Shown one piece after another: positions 1 to 5,937 of a DNA stretch of 5,937 nt. The notes beneath the pieces are model-generated. The model made no database searches and was not told the DNA's origin. It saw only the letters and a program-made list of their open reading frames with translations. A program made the translations under genes and the position numbers. Origin of the DNA: a virus; the IMG/VR virus record IMGVR_UViG_3300045988_001624, positions 1 through 5,937 of that record. The stretch is one strand, 5' to 3'. Position 1 is the stretch's first letter. Every line of letters starts with the position of its first letter.

Positions 1-55
1 GGTATTCGACTGTAAGAAAAAAGGAGAAAAACAATGGAACACAACTATTATGGCA
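1..55. repeat. Terminal redundancy: 1-55 is identical to 5883-5937, the signature of a circular genome assembled with overlap. True unit length is 5882 nt.
   Basis: Direct comparison of the first 55 nt (ggtattcgactgtaagaaaaaaggagaaaaacaatggaacacaactattatggca) with the last 55 nt of the window; exact match. Confidence 0.95.
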
Positions 56-273
56 TCTGGGACAGCGTAGCAAAATGTTACGCATGGATTGGCGAGAGCA
101 AAAATGACCAGACGTTTGCACGCATGTGCAACGTAATGCAGAAGGACGAAAAGACCTTTATCGGGCAGTCGCCGCAGGACTACGCCGGGCACAAACTGGC
201 AGTGTTCAACGACGAAAGCGGAGAATTCACCAACTACAAAGAAAAAGTGTGGGAGGGTAAGCCGAATGAATAA
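34..273 (+). CDS. Hypothetical small protein, 79 aa. By position (between the small basic protein and the VP3-like gene) it could be a VP5-like accessory protein; function unknown.
   Basis: ATG at 34 preceded by AAGGAG (21-26) with 7-nt spacing. Stop TAA 271-273 overlaps the ATG of the next gene (ATGAATAA), suggesting translational coupling. Same strand and A-rich codon style as the other genes. Confidence 0.55.
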   Translation: MEHNYYGIWDSVAKCYAWIGESKNDQTFARMCNVMQKDEKTFIGQSPQDYAGHKLAVFNDESGEFTNYKEKVWEGKPNE

Positions 274-700
274 AAGATACGAAGAAGGGCGAAAGCCCTT
301 CTTTTCTGAATCAGGCAAAACACAACGAAAACAATACGTTTGGGCAAAAAACAAAGAAGGCAAAGAATATCTGCAGGAAACAGAAAGCATTGACATTCAA
401 GCAGAAATTGAAAGCTATGCAGACGAATGCGATATTAAAAACATTGTACGAAAAGCAAGTTTTGACCCGCAGTTTATGCAGAGCCTTTCACAGGGAGCAT
501 TGGACGGGACAGAGACAGATATCACGGAATGGCCACAGAACATCCACGAGTATCATCGAATGATTGCAACAGCACGAGCAAACGCAATTGCACTGCAGAA
601 GATGCAGAAAGAAGCGCCAAAAGAAACGCCAAAAGAAACGCCAAAAGAAACGCCAAAAGAAACACCAAAGGAAGGAGAGAAGAAGAGTGAATCGGAATAA
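266..700 (+). CDS. VP3: Putative internal scaffolding protein (VP3-like), 144 aa, with a C-terminal (KETP)x5 low-complexity tail.
   Basis: Sits immediately upstream of VP1, as VP3 does in gokushoviruses. The acidic middle region followed by a W-P-x-N...A-rich helix resembles gokushovirus VP3 architecture as I recall it. Start is translationally coupled to the upstream ORF. A 12-nt tandem repeat encodes the PKET repeats. Confidence 0.55.
   Translation: MNKRYEEGRKPFFSESGKTQRKQYVWAKNKEGKEYLQETESIDIQAEIESYADECDIKNIVRKASFDPQFMQSLSQGALDGTETDITEWPQNIHEYHRMIATARANAIALQKMQKEAPKETPKETPKETPKETPKEGEKKSESE
282..308 (+). terminator. Hairpin with a GNRA loop: stem aagaagggc / gcccttctt (9 bp), loop gaaa, followed by a T-rich run. 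It lies 9 nt after the stop of the 79-aa ORF and inside the 5' end of the VP3-like gene. Candidate leaky terminator or mRNA-stabilising structure.
   Basis: Inverted repeat 282-290 / 295-303 read directly from the sequence, followed by ttct. Confidence 0.4.
616..675 (+). repeat. Tandem 12-nt repeat gccaaaagaaac: 4 perfect copies plus 1 degenerate copy, in frame within the VP3-like gene, encoding (P-K-E-T)n.
   Basis: Perfect copies at 616-627, 628-639, 640-651 and 652-663; degenerate copy at 664-675. Confidence 0.9.
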
Positions 701-728
701 CGAACGGCATTTTAACCAGATTCCGGAA

Positions 729-2360
729 ATGAAAGCAAGCCGAACGCGATTCAATCGAGATCAGACGATTTTAACGACATTCGACGCGGGTAAACTCATC
801 CCATTTTACGTGGATGAAGTATTGCCGGGTGACACTTTCAGCGTGGATACAGCGGCGATTATCCGTATGACAACGCCAAAATACCCGGTAATGGACGATA
901 GTTTTATCGACTTTTACTATTTCTTCTGTCCGAACCGCATTTTGTGGGACAACTTCAAATACTTTATGGGCGAAGTGGAGGAAACTCCGTGGATGCCTAC
1001 AAAAACGTATGCTGTACCACAAATCAAAATCAACGGAAATAGTGCAGTAGCTAAACCAAATGAAAGGTCAATTCTTGACTACATGGGCGTGCCCACAAAG
1101 ATAAATAAACCATTCAGTGTAAACGCGCTTCCTGTCAGAGCATACGTTAAAATCTGGAATGAATTTTTCAGAGACCAAAACGTAGATAACGCAGCAAGCA
1201 TAAAAACGGATGACGAAGACGTAATCTATAATTCAACAGAAGACCAAAAGGGAACTTTGGAAGAAGACCTGAAGTTTGCAATCAGCGGCAACAACCTGTT
1301 ACCGGTTAATAAATTCCACGACTATTTCACAAGCTGCCTACCGTATCCGCAGAGAGGGCCAAACGTAACACTACCGCTAACTGGAAATGCAAGAGTAGAA
1401 TGGAGTTTTTCAACAGAAGAACTGCAGAATTACGGAATCATGACCAGCAACGGTGAAACACATCTGATACCGACAAACGGAAATACGTTAGGAGCACCCA
1501 CAAGAAACGAAGATAACGGAAAGGCAAGAGTAATATTTGGAAAAGACACAAACGGAGTATCTACATGGGTGCCAATGGAAGCAAGGCTAGACAATGCAAC
1601 ATCAGCAACAATCAACCAGCTTCGACAGGCCATCAGCGTGCAACAGTACTACGAAGCACTAGCAAGAGGTGGCTCACGGTACAGAGAGCAAGTACAGGCA
1701 ATTTGGGATGTCATCATTTCGGATAAAACGGTACAAGTGCCTGAATATCTGGGCGGCGGACGCTATCACGTCAATATCAACCAAATTGTGCAGACCAGTG
1801 GCCAGCAGACAAACAATGATACACCCATTGGTGAAACCGGTGCAATGTCCGTCACACCTATCAATGAAAGTTCTTTCACAAAGAGTTTCGAAGAGCATGG
1901 CTTTGTGATTGGCGTGTGTTGCGTAAGACATAGCAGAAGCTACCAACAGGGGCTTGAACGTTTCTGGAGCAGAAAAGACCGCCTTGACTATTATGTGCCG
2001 CAGTTCGCAAATCTGGGAGAACAGCCAGTAAAAAAGAAGGAAATCATGCTCACCGGCAATACAACCGATGATGAAACCTTTGGCTATCAAGAAGCATGGG
2101 CAGACTACCGGATGAAGCCAAACCGTGTAAGCGGTTTAATGCGAAGCAACGCAACGAGAACGCTCGATTTCTGGCACTATGCAGACAACTATGCAGAAGT
2201 TCCTACACTGTCGCAAGAGTGGATGGCAGAAGGAAAAGCGGAAATCGCAAGAACGCTAATTGTAGAGGACGAGCCCCAATTCTTTGGAGCAATCCGCGTA
2301 GCAAACAAGACAACTCGCAGGATGCCGCTTTACAGCGTGCCGGGGCTGTACAAACTGTAA
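729..2360 (+). CDS. VP1: Major capsid protein VP1 (Microviridae F-like / gokushovirus VP1), 543 aa from ATG 729. An alternative GTG start at 687 has a strong SD.
   Basis: The N-terminal region TTFDAGKLIPFYVDEVLPGDTF...FYYFFCPNRILWDNF is the hallmark conserved block of gokushovirus VP1. Length fits VP1. Stop TAA 2358-2360. Confidence 0.93.
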   Translation: MKASRTRFNRDQTILTTFDAGKLIPFYVDEVLPGDTFSVDTAAIIRMTTPKYPVMDDSFIDFYYFFCPNRILWDNFKYFMGEVEETPWMPTKTYAVPQIKINGNSAVAKPNERSILDYMGVPTKINKPFSVNALPVRAYVKIWNEFFRDQNVDNAASIKTDDEDVIYNSTEDQKGTLEEDLKFAISGNNLLPVNKFHDYFTSCLPYPQRGPNVTLPLTGNARVEWSFSTEELQNYGIMTSNGETHLIPTNGNTLGAPTRNEDNGKARVIFGKDTNGVSTWVPMEARLDNATSATINQLRQAISVQQYYEALARGGSRYREQVQAIWDVIISDKTVQVPEYLGGGRYHVNINQIVQTSGQQTNNDTPIGETGAMSVTPINESSFTKSFEEHGFVIGVCCVRHSRSYQQGLERFWSRKDRLDYYVPQFANLGEQPVKKKEIMLTGNTTDDETFGYQEAWADYRMKPNRVSGLMRSNATRTLDFWHYADNYAEVPTLSQEWMAEGKAEIARTLIVEDEPQFFGAIRVANKTTRRMPLYSVPGLYKL

Positions 2361-2362
2361 GA

Positions 2363-2395
2363 AAGGAGGAAGCCGGGAGAAATCCCGGCTATTTT
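2363..2395 (+). promoter_or_regulatory. SD AAGGAGG (2363-2369) followed by a perfect 8-bp hairpin (agccggga gaaa tcccggct, 2371-2390) and atttt, 10 nt before the VP2 ATG. Candidate leaky terminator and/or a structured RBS that folds to bring the SD near the start codon.
   Basis: Perfect inverted repeat AGCCGGGA / TCCCGGCT with a GAAA tetraloop, seen directly in the sequence. There is no SD within 15 nt of ATG 2401 unless the hairpin is folded out. Confidence 0.5.
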
Positions 2396-2400
2396 AAAAA

Positions 2401-3309
2401 ATGGCGTTTGGAATAGACGACTTCTTGATGTTAGCCGGAGGCATTGGAACGGTAGCAAACACAATAGGAAACGTGGCAAATGCCGCAGGAAACGTAGGAA
2501 GATTATTCGGCGGATGGGGTCAAACAGGCCAGAGCCAGAGCGCGGGCGGAAGCACACAGCAAGGTGGCGGAAGCAGTCAAAGCATGAGCAAATCCGGAAC
2601 GAATGATGAACAGGTGATGCAGTATCTGAAAAATGCATACCAATATCAGACAGCAGAAGGACAAAGACAAAGTCAATTTAATCAACGATCTATGTTGGAA
2701 CAGATGGGTTACAACACACTAGGAGCAATCGCACAAGGCATATACAATCACATCGAAAACGCAGCGGCAATGAACTTCAACTCGACAGAAGCAATGAAAA
2801 ACCGGGAATGGCAAGAATACATGTCAAATACAGCCTATCAGAGGGCAGTTGAAGACATGAAAAAAGCTGGACTTAATCCTATATTAGCATTCCAGAACGG
2901 CGGCGCAAGCACGCCCGGAGGAAGCGCAGGAACGATATCAGGTGCAAGCATGGGAGCGCCATCATCAAGTGCGCTAGGAGTAAGCAGAGCAAGTGGATTC
3001 GTGCCTAACTCTTACTCAAGTGAAAGTTGGTCAAAAAGTGATTGGTACAACGCTGCACAAAGCTGGAATCAAATGTTGAGTTCAACGGGAATGTCACCAT
3101 ATGGCCTAATGAAAGCATTTGAAGGAATCAACAACGGTGTCGATAACGTAATGGACGAAAACGTGCCAAACAACAGAAAATCCGGAAATAACAAGCATGG
3201 AGGTATAACAGCACAAAACTTTGGTGGTACAAAAAAGAACACAGTAACCATGCAAGACAAAACAGGAAGTTACGGACAAAAGAGAAAGCCAGGTGATTAT
3301 TTAAAGTGA
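2401..3309 (+). CDS. VP2: Minor capsid / DNA pilot protein VP2, 302 aa.
   Basis: Gly/Ala/Asn-rich N-terminus (GGIGTVANTIGNVANAAGNVG). Contains the conserved gokushovirus VP2 block NREWQEYMSNTAYQRAVEDMKKAGLNPILAF. Located directly after VP1, as in gokushoviruses. Confidence 0.9.
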   Translation: MAFGIDDFLMLAGGIGTVANTIGNVANAAGNVGRLFGGWGQTGQSQSAGGSTQQGGGSSQSMSKSGTNDEQVMQYLKNAYQYQTAEGQRQSQFNQRSMLEQMGYNTLGAIAQGIYNHIENAAAMNFNSTEAMKNREWQEYMSNTAYQRAVEDMKKAGLNPILAFQNGGASTPGGSAGTISGASMGAPSSSALGVSRASGFVPNSYSSESWSKSDWYNAAQSWNQMLSSTGMSPYGLMKAFEGINNGVDNVMDENVPNNRKSGNNKHGGITAQNFGGTKKNTVTMQDKTGSYGQKRKPGDYLK

Positions 3310-4325
3310 GCTGCTATAAGCCGTTAATACGGATATACAGCCCAGAAAACAGAGAAATTAGCGGGCAAGTGTATTCACTTGCCCGCTATTCTGAAAGAGT
3401 GGGCAAAAAATTAAAATATGAAGATTTAATATATGAACCAAAAGTTATGTTAATACCTTGTGGGCAGTGCATCGGATGCAGAATACAGCAAAGAGAAGAC
3501 TGGACAACAAGAATTGAACTAGAAGCGAGACAATGGCCGAAAGAGCAAGTATGGTTTATCACATTAACATATGATGATGAACACATACCGGGAATGATTC
3601 TTAGTACAGGCGAAATCATGAGAAAAGTGCAGTATGTTTGGAAACCAGGGAAAAAAACACCGGAAAGCGTGCAAACACTACTATACACAGACGTGCAGAA
3701 ATTCTTAAAAAAGCTCAGAAGAGCTTACAAATCAAGATTAAGATTCTTCTGTGCAGGAGAATATGGAGAGCAAACGGCAAGGCCGCATTATCACATGATA
3801 CTATACGGATGGGAACCAACAGACCTGAAACAGCTATACAAAATCCAACACAACGGATACTTTACTTCAGAAACACTTTGTAAAATTTGGGGCAATGGAA
3901 ATGTGCAAATTGCACAAGCAACACCGGAAACATACAGGTATGTTGCCGGATACGTAACGAAAAAAATGTACGAAATTGATGGCAAAAAAGCAAATACTTA
4001 CTATGAGCTAGGGCAACAAAAGCCATTCGCGTGCATGTCACTTAAACCGGGACTAGGAGATGCCTACTATAAAGAGCACAAAGAAGAAATCTGGAGACAA
4101 GGCTACATTCAATGCACCAACGGAAAACAAGCACAGATACCGCGATACTATGAAAAGATGATGGAAAAAGAAAACCCAGAAAGGCTGTGGAGAATCAAGC
4201 AAAATAGGCAAAGAAAAGCAATCGAGCAAAAAAGGCTACAGCTGGAAGGCAAAGACTACAAAACACAATTAGAAACAAAGGAGCGTGTTATCAAAAAACA
4301 AACGAGAAAGCGTGGAATCCTTTAA
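3306..4325 (+). CDS. VP4: Rolling-circle replication initiator VP4 (phiX174 gene A-like HUH endonuclease), 339 aa, with a GTG start overlapping the VP2 stop (GTGA).
   Basis: N-terminal CxxC block (CGQCIGCR). Motif I FITLTYDD, motif II HUH as PHYHMILY (codons at 3786-3794) and motif III YVAGYVTKK (Tyr codons at 3939 and 3951). Motif III is near-identical to phiX174 A protein YVAKYVNKK. SD AGGTGA at 3291-3296, 9 nt upstream of GTG 3306. An in-frame stop at 3294-3296 excludes any upstream start. Confidence 0.92.
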   Translation: MSCYKPLIRIYSPENREISGQVYSLARYSERVGKKLKYEDLIYEPKVMLIPCGQCIGCRIQQREDWTTRIELEARQWPKEQVWFITLTYDDEHIPGMILSTGEIMRKVQYVWKPGKKTPESVQTLLYTDVQKFLKKLRRAYKSRLRFFCAGEYGEQTARPHYHMILYGWEPTDLKQLYKIQHNGYFTSETLCKIWGNGNVQIAQATPETYRYVAGYVTKKMYEIDGKKANTYYELGQQKPFACMSLKPGLGDAYYKEHKEEIWRQGYIQCTNGKQAQIPRYYEKMMEKENPERLWRIKQNRQRKAIEQKRLQLEGKDYKTQLETKERVIKKQTRKRGIL

Positions 4326-4337
4326 TCGGTGTCACTT

Positions 4338-4374
4338 AGCCCAGTACCTATCAAGTAGGGTACTGGGCTTTATT
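4338..4374 (+). terminator. Rho-independent terminator-like hairpin immediately after the VP4 stop: stem AGCCCAGTACC / GGTACTGGGCT (11 bp, extendable to 13), loop tatcaagtag, then tttatt.
   Basis: Inverted repeat 4338-4348 / 4359-4369 followed by a T-tract at 4369-4374. The loop is the reverse complement of ACTTGATA (see findings). Confidence 0.6.
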
Positions 4375-4420
4375 CGCGCGCACACGCGCACGCGTAGACG
4401 CGCGCACACGCGCACGCGTA
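4375..4420. repeat. Two tandem copies of the 22-nt unit cgcgcgcacacgcgcacgcgta (4375-4396 and 4399-4420), separated by ga. Each unit alternates pyrimidine and purine perfectly and is GC-rich, so it is Z-DNA-prone. Each unit contains an MluI-type palindrome acgcgt.
   Basis: Exact 22/22 identity between the two copies, read directly. Strict Y-R alternation across each 22-mer. Confidence 0.9.
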
Positions 4421-4458
4421 TTATTATATAACTTGTTGTAGCCGTAGTAGTAGAGTAA

Positions 4459-4622
4459 GTTGAAAAGTTAAAAACAGATAATTTTGAACGTTAAAACATT
4501 AAAAAAAGATAAAAACAAGCGTTGAAAGATTTGTTGAAAAAATGTTAAAATGTTAAAATACTCTATTGTGCTAAAGTTTAACAATGTGGAAATGTTGAAA
4601 ACTCTGTGGAAAATGTTGAAAA
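4459..4622. repeat. AT-rich iteron-like array with at least 9 copies of a TGTT(G/A)AAA(A) core. It includes a perfect tandem tgttaaaa x2 (4543-4558) and a ~18-nt direct repeat tgtggaaa(a)tgttgaaaa (4585-4601 and 4605-4622). Candidate DNA-unwinding / protein-binding region.
   Basis: Motif occurrences: gttgaaaa 4459-4466, gttaaaaa 4467-4474, gttaaaac 4490-4497, gttgaaag 4521-4528, tgttgaaaa 4532-4540, tgttaaaa 4543-4550 and 4551-4558, tgttgaaaa 4593-4601 and 4614-4622. Confidence 0.7.
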
Positions 4623-4765
4623 GAACGGCAAATAGAGCAGGACAAGTGGCGGCCGCAAAGTCTGACGGACCGCGCCAATATTTGAAGATGTGCGCCTTCG
4701 GGCGGGAGTTCAACGGCGGTCCTATCCTAGGAAAGGTTACAAATTATTACAAAGAAGCAAAATCA

Positions 4766-4794
4766 TTGAAAAAGGTATTGACAAGTAATATAAT
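4766..4794 (+). promoter_or_regulatory. Sigma70-like promoter: -35 TTGAAA (4766-4771), 17-nt spacer, -10 TATAAT (4789-4794). Predicted TSS is near 4801, driving the downstream small-gene block.
   Basis: Consensus hexamers with canonical spacing. First credible ORF starts 23 nt downstream, with a GGTGA SD. Confidence 0.45.
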
Positions 4795-4823
4795 GGAACC
4801 AGAAAGAAAGAACGGTGAAAACC

Positions 4824-5036
4824 ATGAAAACAAAATGGCTTACAAAAAAACAACTGGAATATTTAAAAGTGAACGGCAGAGTATGGGGAAACAAATACTA
4901 TTATGTAAAAGTAGTACATGGAATCGTAAAATACCATGAAATCTATTACAAAACAGAAACAGGAAAAAAGCTCATGACTGATGATTATGCAACATTCAAT
5001 AGTTTATGGAAATACGCAAAGATAAAAGAGGATTGA
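4824..5036 (+). CDS. Hypothetical Tyr/Lys-rich small protein, 70 aa from ATG 4824 (the ORF track shows a GTG at 4815). No transmembrane segment.
   Basis: ATG 4824 is preceded by GGTGA (4814-4818). A-ending codon bias matches the rest of the genome. Stop TGA 5034-5036 sits just before the peptidase RBS/start. Confidence 0.45.
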   Translation: MKTKWLTKKQLEYLKVNGRVWGNKYYYVKVVHGIVKYHEIYYKTETGKKLMTDDYATFNSLWKYAKIKED

Positions 5037-5041
5037 CGAAA

Positions 5042-5431
5042 ATGATTAAATGCTATATCATGGATACAGACGCAAATGAAAATGTTGGCAAGCACTTCAA
5101 AGTAAAAGAATTCGCGTGCAAAGATGGTTCACAGGTAGTTTTCATAGACAGCTATCTAGTATCAATTCTGGACATTCTCAGAAACCAAGTTGGAAAGCCA
5201 GTGCACATAAACAGTGGATACAGGACACCAACAAGGAATAAATCGGTAGGCGGTGCAAAGTACTCATACCATATGCGGGGAATGGCCGCGGACATTCGGG
5301 TTAATGGCATGACCTCAAAAGAAATCGCCAACAAACTGAAAAAAATCATCCCGACTGGCTGTGGAATCATCGTATACAGTACATGGGTACACATCGACAC
5401 GCGCACCAAAGCATACAGAAAGGGGGTGTAA
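5042..5431 (+). CDS. Peptidase M15_3 family (zinc D-Ala-D-Ala carboxypeptidase / endolysin-like peptidoglycan hydrolase), 129 aa from ATG 5042. The ORF track's upstream ATG at 5006 has no RBS.
   Basis: Near-textbook Peptidase_M15_3 signature: F..EF.C.DG....L...L..LR...GKP..INSGYRTP..N..VGGA..S.H..G.AADI.V.G........GCG..VY...VHID.R, including the H...D...H zinc-ligand pattern. RBS AAGAGGA at 5026-5032, 9 nt before ATG 5042. Confidence 0.9.
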   Translation: MIKCYIMDTDANENVGKHFKVKEFACKDGSQVVFIDSYLVSILDILRNQVGKPVHINSGYRTPTRNKSVGGAKYSYHMRGMAADIRVNGMTSKEIANKLKKIIPTGCGIIVYSTWVHIDTRTKAYRKGV

Positions 5432-5433
5432 AA

Positions 5434-5553
5434 ATGGCTTTTATCAGTCTCAAAGACGCAAAGGAAGCAATCAAAGTGATGATGGAAATCCTAGCAGTGC
5501 TTGACAAAATTTATCATGCGCTGGTGGACAACGTCACCGATAAGACGGAGTAA
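5434..5553 (+). CDS. Unannotated 39-aa ORF (MAFISLKDAKEAIKVMMEILAVLDKIYHALVDNVTDKTE), amphipathic-helix-like. Below the size cut-off of the supplied ORF track.
   Basis: ATG 5434 is 6 nt after the AGGGGG run (5422-5427). Starts 3 nt after the peptidase stop. Its stop TAA (5551-5553) overlaps the AAGGAG RBS of the next gene, so it is tightly packed like the real genes. Confidence 0.3.
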   Translation: MAFISLKDAKEAIKVMMEILAVLDKIYHALVDNVTDKTE

Positions 5554-5563
5554 GGAGAAAAAA

Positions 5564-5791
5564 ATGGTTACAAAATCATGGAACGTAAGAGACCAGACCG
5601 AAAAAGAACTAACCGAACTGCTTGAAAAGAAATACAAAGAAATCGAGAACGATTACAAGCTCCTACGAAAAATAAGCGAGATTGAGACCGCAAAAAAGAT
5701 GATAGATGAAATATGGCAATGCAAAAGATTTGCCAACGTCATTGAGCTGGAGCTTATCAGAAGGGGATTCTATAATGGGACGACATCGTAA
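5564..5791 (+). CDS. Hypothetical helical / coiled-coil-like protein, 76 aa from ATG 5564. The ORF track extends it to 5501, but that portion has no RBS.
   Basis: AAGGAG at 5552-5557, 6 nt upstream of ATG 5564. Charged heptad-like sequence (EKELTELLEKKYKEIENDYKLLRKISEIE). Confidence 0.55.
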   Translation: MVTKSWNVRDQTEKELTELLEKKYKEIENDYKLLRKISEIETAKKMIDEIWQCKRFANVIELELIRRGFYNGTTS

Positions 5792-5897
5792 AGTAATGCG
5801 CAACGCAAAGGACAAGCGTATGTTCAACGTGACCGCGCGAAAAACGAAAAGTATCAACCTGAGTCAGAAACCAATGCGCGGCGGTATTCGACTGTAA
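5775..5897 (+). CDS. Small highly basic DNA-binding / packaging protein (phiX174 J-like; gokushovirus ORF8-like), 40 aa: MGRHRKVMRNAKDKRMFNVTARKTKSINLSQKPMRGGIRL.
   Basis: 12 of 40 residues are K/R. The C-terminal PMRGGIRL matches the characteristic ending of gokushovirus ORF8-type proteins as I recall them. SD AAGGGG at 5761-5766, 8 nt upstream. Runs across the circular junction (end equals position 15). Confidence 0.7.
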   Translation: MGRHRKVMRNAKDKRMFNVTARKTKSINLSQKPMRGGIRL

Positions 5898-5937
5898 GAA
5901 AAAAGGAGAAAAACAATGGAACACAACTATTATGGCA
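5883..5937. repeat. Second copy of the terminal redundancy (equivalent to 1-55).
   Basis: Exact identity with 1-55. Confidence 0.95.

Follow-up and report, generated by a model that had tools for sequence, protein, structure and literature searches.

A microvirus repeat array that probably forms the DnaA-box part of an oriC-type unwinding module

Results

The window studied here, a stretch of 5,937 nt (positions 1 to 5,937 of IMG/VR record IMGVR_UViG_3300045988_001624), contains one circular microvirus genome of 5,882 nt with an exact terminal redundancy of 55 nt (1-55 and 5883-5937), which indicates that the genome is circular and was read past its own start. All genes lie on the + strand of the window and run from a VP3-like open reading frame (ORF, 266-700) through VP1 (about 687-2360), VP2 (2401-3309) and the Rep protein VP4 (3306-4325; Pfam PF23343) to an intergenic region of 489 nt (4326-4814), followed by small ORFs, a peptidase M15 gene (5042-5431) and the gene for a small basic protein. 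By MegaBLAST, GenBank gokushoviruses from human, pig, monkey and dog faeces are related to the window. Microviridae are textbook rolling-circle replicons with almost no non-coding DNA. An earlier note, made from the letters of the window alone, had pointed out an intergenic region of about 490 nt, a length that holds, and an array of TGTT(G/A)AAA repeats in it at 4459-4622, for which it proposed iterons of a host or phage protein, an unwinding element, a promoter cluster or a packaging site. This array is the 3' part of a conserved module of about 205 bases (4419-4623) that lies between VP4 and the small ORF upstream of the peptidase M15 gene and resembles the basal unwinding system (BUS) of bacterial chromosome origins.

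The repeats are found where the earlier note placed them. TGTTRAAA has six matches in the window against 1.02 expected, five of them + strand copies within 4532-4621, and the relaxed core GTKRAWA has 24 against 9.07 expected; in neither case does any of 200 shuffles reach the observed count. Eleven GTKRAWA copies, all on the + strand, lie within 4459-4621 (starts at 4459, 4467, 4490, 4521, 4533, 4544, 4552, 4586, 4594, 4606 and 4615). The perfect tandem claimed at 4543-4558 is TGTTAAAA-TGTTAAAA, which Tandem Repeats Finder also reports (4539-4559, period 8, 100% matches). A direct repeat described as 18 nt long is present as well, but its copies measure 17 nt (4585-4601) and 18 nt (4605-4622), being separated by a one-base indel (GGAAAT/GGAAAAT). 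The array itself is real, but its extent was drawn too narrowly, the 5' part of the unit having been missed.

From its 5' end, the module begins with a pure A/T stretch (TATTATTATATAA, 4419-4431), a candidate duplex-unwinding element that in the relatives is a variable A/T-only sequence of 12-15 nt with GC-rich sequence before it. Between this stretch and a DnaA-trio-like run, TAG CCG TAG TAG TAG (4439-4453, + strand), lies CTTGTTG (4432-4438, + strand), which is spanned by TAACTTGTTGTAG at 4429-4441. A spacer of 4 nt (AGTA, 4454-4457) leads from the trios to a tandem pair of boxes with an 8-nt period, AGTTGAAA and AGTTAAAAA (4458-4474, + strand), for which the family consensus is TGTGGAAA and AGTTGAAAA. 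An A/T-rich spacer 1, variable in sequence and fixed in length (4475-4519; about 45 nt in the family), separates the pair from box cluster 2 (CGTTGAAAG, TGTTGAAAA, TGTTAAAAT and again TGTTAAAAT; 4520-4559, + strand; periods of 12, 11 and 8), and a spacer 2 of variable sequence (4560-4584; about 35 nt in the family) separates the latter from box cluster 3 (TGTGGAAAT, TGTTGAAAA, TGTGGAAAA and TGTTGAAAA; 4585-4622, + strand). Cluster 3 is dispensable in some relatives, being absent from L034 and from L039, where a gene begins directly after cluster 2; in L040, clusters 1-2 are internally duplicated. These natural variants help to delimit the minimal element. Across the whole genome, duplex stability in 100-bp windows is lowest for those that start at 4416-4476, and the 20-mers from 4418-4419 are second in instability only to an A/T-rich stretch of the genome at 3409-3417.

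Scans of IMG/VR with patterns made from the core, from the iteron pair or from trios and boxes yielded 165 non-identical copies of the element in microvirus genomes whose VP1 is 38-96% identical to that of the window. Because the search patterns were drawn from the element itself, the invariance of CTTGTTGTAG...TAGTAGTAG is partly by construction, as is the presence of CTTGTTG, a part of the search pattern, in all 165 elements; a search with the iterons only nevertheless led back to this core, which differed solely in the variable triplet and at its first one or two positions. The order of the parts is constant, with 12-15 nt of A/T, CTTGTTG, TAG-NNG-TAG-TAG-TAG, a 4-nt spacer, two boxes 8 nt apart and two four-box clusters. 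Despite variable spacer sequence, about 80% of elements have their boxes starting at +27, +35, +89, +101, +112 and +120, counted from the C of CTTG; the distance from box +27 to box +89 is likewise constant in about 80%, and AACGTT is partly conserved in spacer 1. A blastn search with the intergenic region matched 51 phage records, nearly all of them without annotation at the site. In a distant genome (MG945135), the module stretch is the only part that megaBLAST still aligns. Moreover, the alignment and an in-place inversion in MG945388 give sharp module boundaries that correspond to 4419-4623 of the window.

The BUS of bacterial oriC consists of DnaA-trios, a GC spacer and tandem DnaA boxes, with an A/T-rich region beyond the trios. 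It is recognised by at least three consecutive NAN trios, 3'-GAT-5' being preferred, and by a box with at most two mismatches to TTATCCACA or to the species-specific box, located 0-16 bp from the trios; published origins have a 4-bp GC-rich spacer, e.g. GGCC, GGGC or GGCT. For example, the origin of B. subtilis reads 5'-TAGTAGAAGTAATAGTAG-GGCC-TGTGGATT-TGTGGATAA, including TAGTAG before the spacer, that of C. kluyveri (TAG)6-GGGC-TGTGGATA-TGTTGATAA, that of C. botulinum F (TAG)6-GGCT-TGTTGATA-TGTTGATAA and that of C. acetobutylicum ...TAGTAGTAG-GGAG-TGTGGATT-TGTTGATAA.

In the window, TAG, the published trio consensus, occurs three times in a row at 4445-4453 and once more at 4439-4441; trios are found in all 165 elements, whose search patterns include them. 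The second triplet is TCG in 51 relatives, TAG in 37, CCG in 30, GAG in 23 and ACG in 17, so that 37 of the 165 elements carry (TAG)5. The trio-box spacer is exactly 4 nt long in every element, being AGTA in the window and 28 others and G-rich (GGAG, GGGC, GCAA) in most relatives, and the second box follows at the 8-nt period seen in B. subtilis and Clostridium. A pattern for the BUS has a single match in the window (4448-4474), with 0.00 expected. Polarity is also the same, since A/T stretch (4419-4431), trios (4439-4453), spacer and boxes (from 4458) follow each other on the + strand as in the B. subtilis oligonucleotide oHM558. Over 30 positions, the family consensus TAGTAGTAGGGGCTGTGGAAAAGTTGAAAA (TAGTAGTAG-GGGC-TGTGGAAA-AGTTGAAAA) matches the C. 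kluyveri origin at 27. The module is not beside dnaA/dnaN but on a circular phage genome of 5,882 nt, and hence it is a BUS-like module on a phage and not a chromosomal oriC.

The boxes themselves follow the DnaA box. The consensus proximal box TGTGGAAA(A), with one mismatch, is found in 81/165 elements, and TGTTGAAA in 39/165; the copy AGTTGAAAA in the window has three mismatches to TGTGGATAA and one to the listed variant TGTTGAAAA. Published origin tables give both TGTTGAAAA and TGTTGATAA as the standard or a predicted DnaA box of several species. The T at position 4, which made the repeats look unlike DnaA boxes, is a feature of Clostridial origin boxes. Within the phage family, the boxes vary only at positions 4 (T/G) and 7 (A/T), which are the positions where the iterons differ from TGTGGATAA (T at 4, A at 7), and site +101, the second of cluster 2, is a perfect TGTGGATAA in 16 of 80 elements. 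Also, TGTTGAAAACCTGTTGAAA in cluster 3 of relatives resembles the TGTTGAAAA-ACC-TGTTGAAAA listed in the origin region of Ruminococcus albus.

A different host regulator could be imagined at these sites, such as Spo0A, whose 0A box is TGTCGAA and which would tie phage development to sporulation as in phage phi29. A single base separates TTTGTTGAAAA, taken with its flanks, from the extended 0A box TTTGTCGAAAA, TGTCGAAAA is found at site +101 in one relative, and the likely hosts are Firmicutes, the group to which a CRISPR-based study assigned a gut clade of phiMH2K-like microviruses. However, position 4 is T or G, with C in only 1 of 80 elements at site +101 and in none at the remaining five fixed sites. 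The box variants approach the DnaA box and not the 0A box, and the TAG trios, the 4-nt spacer and the tandem pair would be left unexplained. We therefore give the Spo0A explanation only a slight chance.

The repeats could also be, as known from CRESS-DNA viruses and rolling-circle plasmids, iterons for the phage's own rolling-circle initiator VP4, which would bind them and nick the neighbouring CTTGTTG. Tandem 8-nt direct repeats beside a nick site are typical of HUH Rep origins. Moreover, CTTGTTGTAG occurs in all 165 recovered elements, and CTTGTTG resembles the Rep hairpin-loop motifs of phiMH2K (TACTTGTTGTAA) and SpV4 (TACTTGTTATA). The distribution of the module beyond the lineage speaks against this explanation. 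A scan with TAGTAG-N4-TGTKGAWW-WGTKGAWAA recovers, besides microviruses, contigs of double-stranded DNA (dsDNA) phages. A 140-kb contig of this kind (L230/L254; L230 about 2280-2560), which encodes topoisomerase II subunits and an RNA ligase, carries TAGTAGTAG-GTCG-TGTTGAAA-AGTTGAAAAC and further TGTTGAAAA boxes, and related versions with canonical box clusters are found in L195, L215, L198, L242 and L247. L209 and L211 are also among the dsDNA phage contigs with BUS-like origins (A/T stretch, TAG trios, 4-nt spacer, tandem boxes and further clusters). L230/L254, which use the TGTTGAAA-AGTTGAAAAC pair of the microviruses, may share their host range.

Two distant small microviruses, L251 (4,651 nt) and L262 (4,791 nt), with VP1 33-35% and VP4 27% identical to those of the window, have (TAG)6-GCAT-TGTGGAAA-TGTGGAAAA, behind which four or five perfect TGTGGATAA boxes are spaced at periods of 12 and 11; in L262 this BUS (about 2225-2460) overlaps the 3' end of VP4. 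Neither L251/L262 nor the dsDNA phages have CTTGTTG in their BUS modules. Within the family, the box sequence is unchanged across VP4 proteins that are 40-94% identical, so that the repeats do not co-vary with Rep and the same boxes recur in dsDNA phages that lack VP4 and in bacterial origins. Its presence in VP4-less dsDNA phages and in distant microviruses indicates that the module travels independently of VP4, which, together with boxes that follow host-type DnaA boxes, favours DnaA over Rep as the binding protein. A better candidate for the Rep site also exists nearby (4338-4369, described below). Iterons for VP4 are thus unlikely. The iterons for a host protein and the unwinding element of the earlier note, in turn, gain support from the comparison, refined to the DnaA boxes of a BUS with trios and A/T stretch just 5' of them.

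Two further explanations concern the expression of the genome, namely that the array is a promoter or UP-element cluster for the downstream genes, or that it encodes the low-complexity N-terminus of a protein (ORF 4550-4939 or ORF 4468-4713 on the minus strand). Promoter-like sites at 4522-4551 and 4534-4562 and ORFs on both strands speak for them. The TTGAAA-N18-TAAAAT arrangement noted earlier at 4522-4551 is indeed present in the window, but it is not conserved, its -10 hexamer being retained in only 5/165 related elements, and the module flips and moves relative to the genes. Outside the array, a near-consensus promoter at 4766-4794 (TTGAAA, 17 nt, TATAAT; 11/12 matches) lies just upstream of the ORF start at 4815/4824 and is probably the chief promoter of the genes that follow the intergenic region. 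As for coding, the frame is open across the relatives in 0/165 for each + frame and in at most 19/165 for a - frame, neither ORF has a Pfam match, and protein-level matches are short, poor or contain stops. Conservation of ORF 4550-4939 had been named as the finding that would turn the repeats into a protein start; its closest relatives (VP1 95% identical) align at 44-48% only, and most others match over the repeat stretch only or have stops. A promoter or coding function is hence barely credible. Part of the promoter at 4766-4794, ACAAGTAATATAAT, is complementary to 4423-4436.

The orientation of the module bears on which form of the DNA it would act on. It is inverted relative to the genes in 19/165 copies from at least three lineages; in MG945388 it is flipped in place, with both flanks keeping their orientation, and in the clade with VP1 38-45% identical it sits between VP2 and VP4. 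The candidate nick-site hairpin described below keeps its orientation in the inverted-module genomes. Inversion in 19 of 165 copies argues for action on double-stranded DNA, as flipping would be tolerable for a duplex-opening protein-DNA complex and not for a directional promoter or a strand-specific signal on packaged DNA. Nothing was found in support of the packaging site that had been suggested.

The same observation disfavours a single-strand origin on the packaged single-stranded DNA (ssDNA), which would prime the complementary strand like the primosome assembly site (PAS) of phiX174, the G4 origin or a plasmid single-strand origin (sso). Every microvirus needs such an origin, and in phiX174 and G4 it is located in long intergenic regions. 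Moreover, in several clades (L002, L007-L011, L018, L021 and L030, at the module 3' end, and also L004 and L024) an inverted TTTTCCACA follows the last boxes (TGTGGAAAATGTTGAAAAGCATGAGTTTTCCACA). In ssDNA, this could fold into a hairpin whose stem is a DnaA box, which recalls the DnaA-dependent 'ABC primosome' sites. However, 17-19 genomes have the module inverted with respect to the candidate nick-site hairpin, neither strand of the module folds better than shuffles (z -0.06 and +0.28), and all boxes are direct repeats, so that no duplex boxes can form in ssDNA. A single-strand origin is, on this evidence, very unlikely. An Rfam scan of the whole window gave no match with E up to 1.

Directly after VP4, the intergenic region contains a hairpin at 4338-4369 with an 11-bp stem and the loop CTACTTGATA on the - strand (4349-4358), a candidate nick or recognition site for VP4. 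It is terminator-like (-12.1 kcal/mol, z -5.4) and may also serve as the VP4 terminator on the + strand. Among the relatives, a conserved loop is combined with covarying stems, whose 8-nt ends occur in 25 different versions. Read in reverse complement, the loop gives TACTTGAT(A), a motif that is the same in coding-strand hairpin loops of Chlamydia phage 2 (Chp2; TCTACTTGAT) and L251/L262 and close to it in SpV4 (ATTACTTGTTATA) and phiMH2K (...TACTTGTTGTAA). In L251/L262, the hairpin is separate from the BUS, has the loop TAGTACTTGATATATAT on the coding strand and lies upstream of VP4 (about 3338-3368 in L262).

The strand that carries this motif follows the base composition of the coding strand almost without fault, phiMH2K being the single exception. 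At 4-fold degenerate sites, the coding strand of the window is rich in A (A 0.50, T 0.14), while those of Chp2 (T 0.51), SpV4 (T 0.66) and L262 (T 0.58) are rich in T. A survey covered 193 non-identical genomes, which are phylogenetically non-independent and stem from perhaps ten lineages. Of these, 175 have A-rich coding strands; the CTTG[AT] hairpin motif is confined to the non-coding strand in 157 of them and to the coding strand in one (phiMH2K). Of the 17 genomes whose coding strands are T-rich, 12 carry the motif exclusively on the coding strand and none exclusively on the non-coding strand. All 17 inverted-module genomes with a detectable hairpin keep the motif on the non-coding strand. 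The possibility that the orientation of the module sets the packaged strand was rejected, as genomes with a direct and with an inverted module do not differ in their skews at 4-fold sites; with the hairpin strand fixed, this means that the hairpin, and not the DnaA module, tracks polarity. The pattern suggests that the lineage of the window nicks, displaces and packages the strand antisense to its genes.

On both sides, the module is flanked by GC-rich sequence. Between the hairpin and the A/T stretch, two 22-nt copies of alternating purine-pyrimidine sequence, CGCGCGCACACGCGCACGCGTA, lie 24 nt apart (4375-4420), forming a perfect direct repeat of 24-nt period that is prone to Z-DNA and could act as a GC clamp. 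CG-rich tracts of this kind flank the module in relatives and remain on the VP4 side when the module is inverted. On the other side, the GC-rich segment 4624-4745 contains GCGCC-TTCG-GGCG and is conserved in close relatives only, other clades having different GC-rich sequences there; its orientation is unchanged where the module is inverted (MG945388). As a structured RNA or DNA it was rejected, since it folds no better than shuffles (z +0.31). Farther away, inside the VP3-like ORF, a 12-nt tandem repeat (AAAGAAACGCCA, 5.5 copies, 608-673) encodes a (KETP)n tract.

Other mobile elements were also met in the searches. A dif/Xer-like integration site, considered by eye from ATGTTAAAAT, was dismissed because neither a XerC arm nor a central region is present and the searches gave no prophage junctions. 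The 17-mer iteron matched many large contigs by chance; the search with it also picked up a small Mob/primase/integrase plasmid, which has TTGTTGAA/TCTCAACA repeats of its own and was judged not to be the same element. Small plasmid-like elements were found at loci of 5.2-7.1 kb (L125, L086, L129, L130 and L153). L125, whose proteins were scanned, encodes a Mob_Pre relaxase, a Toprim/zinc-ribbon primase, a DUF5906/VapE-like helicase and an integrase, and its intergenic region (about 2654-2929) contains TTGTTGAATTGTTGAAT and three inverted TCTCAACA repeats, which may be another origin using a similar box.

Discussion

The TGTTGAAA array of this microvirus is, by comparison of sequences, probably the DnaA-box part of a captured oriC-type BUS origin, of the Clostridium type, that would act on the replicative form. 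The match to the characterised bacterial system suggests that DnaA binds the module, and by analogy with that system its unwinding, the loading of a helicase and the stage of the phage cycle that uses it can be proposed. Host DnaA would bind the ten or so boxes of the same orientation (4458-4622) on the double-stranded replicative form, and DnaA at the trio-proximal pair (4458-4474) would nucleate an ATP-DnaA oligomer. This oligomer would then cross the 4-nt spacer onto the TAG trios (4439-4453) and melt the A/T stretch (4419-4431), where the helicase-loading machinery of the host would enter the opened DNA and start replication of the replicative form, in a plasmid-like, theta-type amplification or maintenance. 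Alternatively or additionally, the opening may help to expose the candidate VP4 nick-site hairpin (4338-4369), which is 50-80 bp away.

Several observations weigh against a captured DnaA origin. The copy in the window is weaker than the family consensus, since its trio-proximal boxes AGTTGAAA and AGTTAAAAA have at least three mismatches to TGTGGATAA and, with the AGTA spacer, it matches the C. kluyveri origin at only 21/30 positions. Some boxes are spaced more tightly (8-9 nt) than the 11-bp period of the low-affinity DnaA sites of E. coli, and the CTTGTTG between A/T stretch and trios is unexplained, having no counterpart in the bacterial BUS. Two more features are not accounted for: the second triplet is TCG, CCG or ACG, and hence not NAN as in the bacterial BUS, in 98/165 elements, and spacer 1 holds head-to-head weak boxes (TTTTGAAC/GTTAAAAC, 4482-4497). 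The published BUS predictions used for comparison are themselves partly computational. Also, a host and prophage search with the 29-nt core gave no match in 185,579 species genomes. A relaxed 22-nt core gave 26 matches there, one being a binned 5.7-kb microvirus contig and 25 being unrelated, none of these with repeats beside it; the two that were read lie in the coding sequence of a Thr-rich linker in Ruminococcus and repeated Glycomyces matches are among the rest. Finally, the benefit of a DnaA origin to a microvirus is a matter of conjecture, as these phages are thought to need only Rep-driven rolling-circle replication.

For this same reason, a DnaA module is unexpected in such phages. As a kind of element, the DnaA-dependent BUS origin is known; as a portable and invertible module in ssDNA phages it would be new. 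In literature full texts, no paper was found that links DnaA boxes or trios with Microviridae, nor one on a conserved origin region in gokushoviruses. On this reading, no fewer than 165 genomes of gut gokushoviruses would carry a conserved, portable unwinding system of the host's DnaA type, and so would another, distant lineage of microviruses and several dsDNA phages. This implies that the phages plug into the master initiator of the host, by which their replication would become coupled to the DnaA-ATP status of the cell, and the module could explain the plasmid-like persistence of abundant gut microviruses without an integrase. Moreover, it offers a sequence-based clue to the host, given that the TGTTGAAA/TGTTGATAA boxes and the (TAG)n-GGGC layout resemble those of Clostridia and Ruminococcaceae. 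The Firmicutes hosts assigned by the CRISPR-based study to the broader microvirus clade also speak for a DnaA origin of this type. For research on origin unwinding, it provides natural minimal BUS variants with different boxes, spacers and trio interruptions in both orientations.

The DnaA module and the hairpin can be combined in one proposal, a two-origin replicon of reversed polarity, which we put forward tentatively, at slightly less than even chances. In this replicon, VP4 would nick 4338-4369 on the non-gene strand and give antisense virion DNA, and the oriC module would let DnaA replicate the dsDNA form in a plasmid-like way. If true, antisense virion DNA would be unlike that of every described member of the Microviridae and would overturn the assumption that all microviruses package the coding strand, and the plasmid-like replication would provide a route to long-term carriage without integration.

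Compared with known systems, the hairpin and CTTGTTG recall rolling-circle origins. The nick sites of phiX174 (CAACTTG^ATATTAATAAC) and of pC194/pUB110 (CTTG^ATA) share a CTTG core with the loop CTACTTGATA (4349-4358) and with CTTGTTG (4432-4438), where it is a candidate cleavage site. VP4 belongs to the same Rep superfamily as the phiX174/pC194 initiators (Pfam PF23343). However, these origins have no counterpart of the repeat array. Iteron origins of plasmid RepA and CRESS-DNA virus Rep do share with the module multiple short direct repeats of fixed spacing and an A/T-rich origin, but plasmid iterons are 17-22 bp long and are bound by an encoded RepA. In the window there is no RepA, and the repeats of the module are shared with bacterial origins and unrelated phages. 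The Spo0A-box arrays of phage phi29 and of B. subtilis oriC are likewise clusters of host-regulator boxes at a phage origin, with a box one base apart (TGTCGAA vs TGTTGAA), but the diagnostic C at position 4 is essentially absent from the module, and the layout of trios and spacer is foreign to the Spo0A system.

Mobile replicons that recruit the host initiator through DnaA boxes are closer. P1 oriR, pSC101, F and RK2 have origins with DnaA boxes. However, in these classic plasmid origins the DnaA boxes stand beside iterons for the plasmid's own Rep and there are no trios, whereas the window has no gene for a theta-type Rep and encodes a rolling-circle Rep. In the dsDNA phage L230/L254, by contrast, the trios, the spacer and the TGTTGAAA-AGTTGAAAAC pair are nearly identical to those of the microvirus module. 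The bacterial BUS differs in being chromosomal, while the phage module lies on a 5.9-kb ssDNA phage genome, in variable orientation and position and with boxes that are mostly TGTTGAAA(A). Nonetheless, the phage module has the same order of parts on the same strand as the bacterial system, the same 4-nt spacer and 8-nt period of tandem boxes, and also an A/T stretch beyond the trios and further box clusters.

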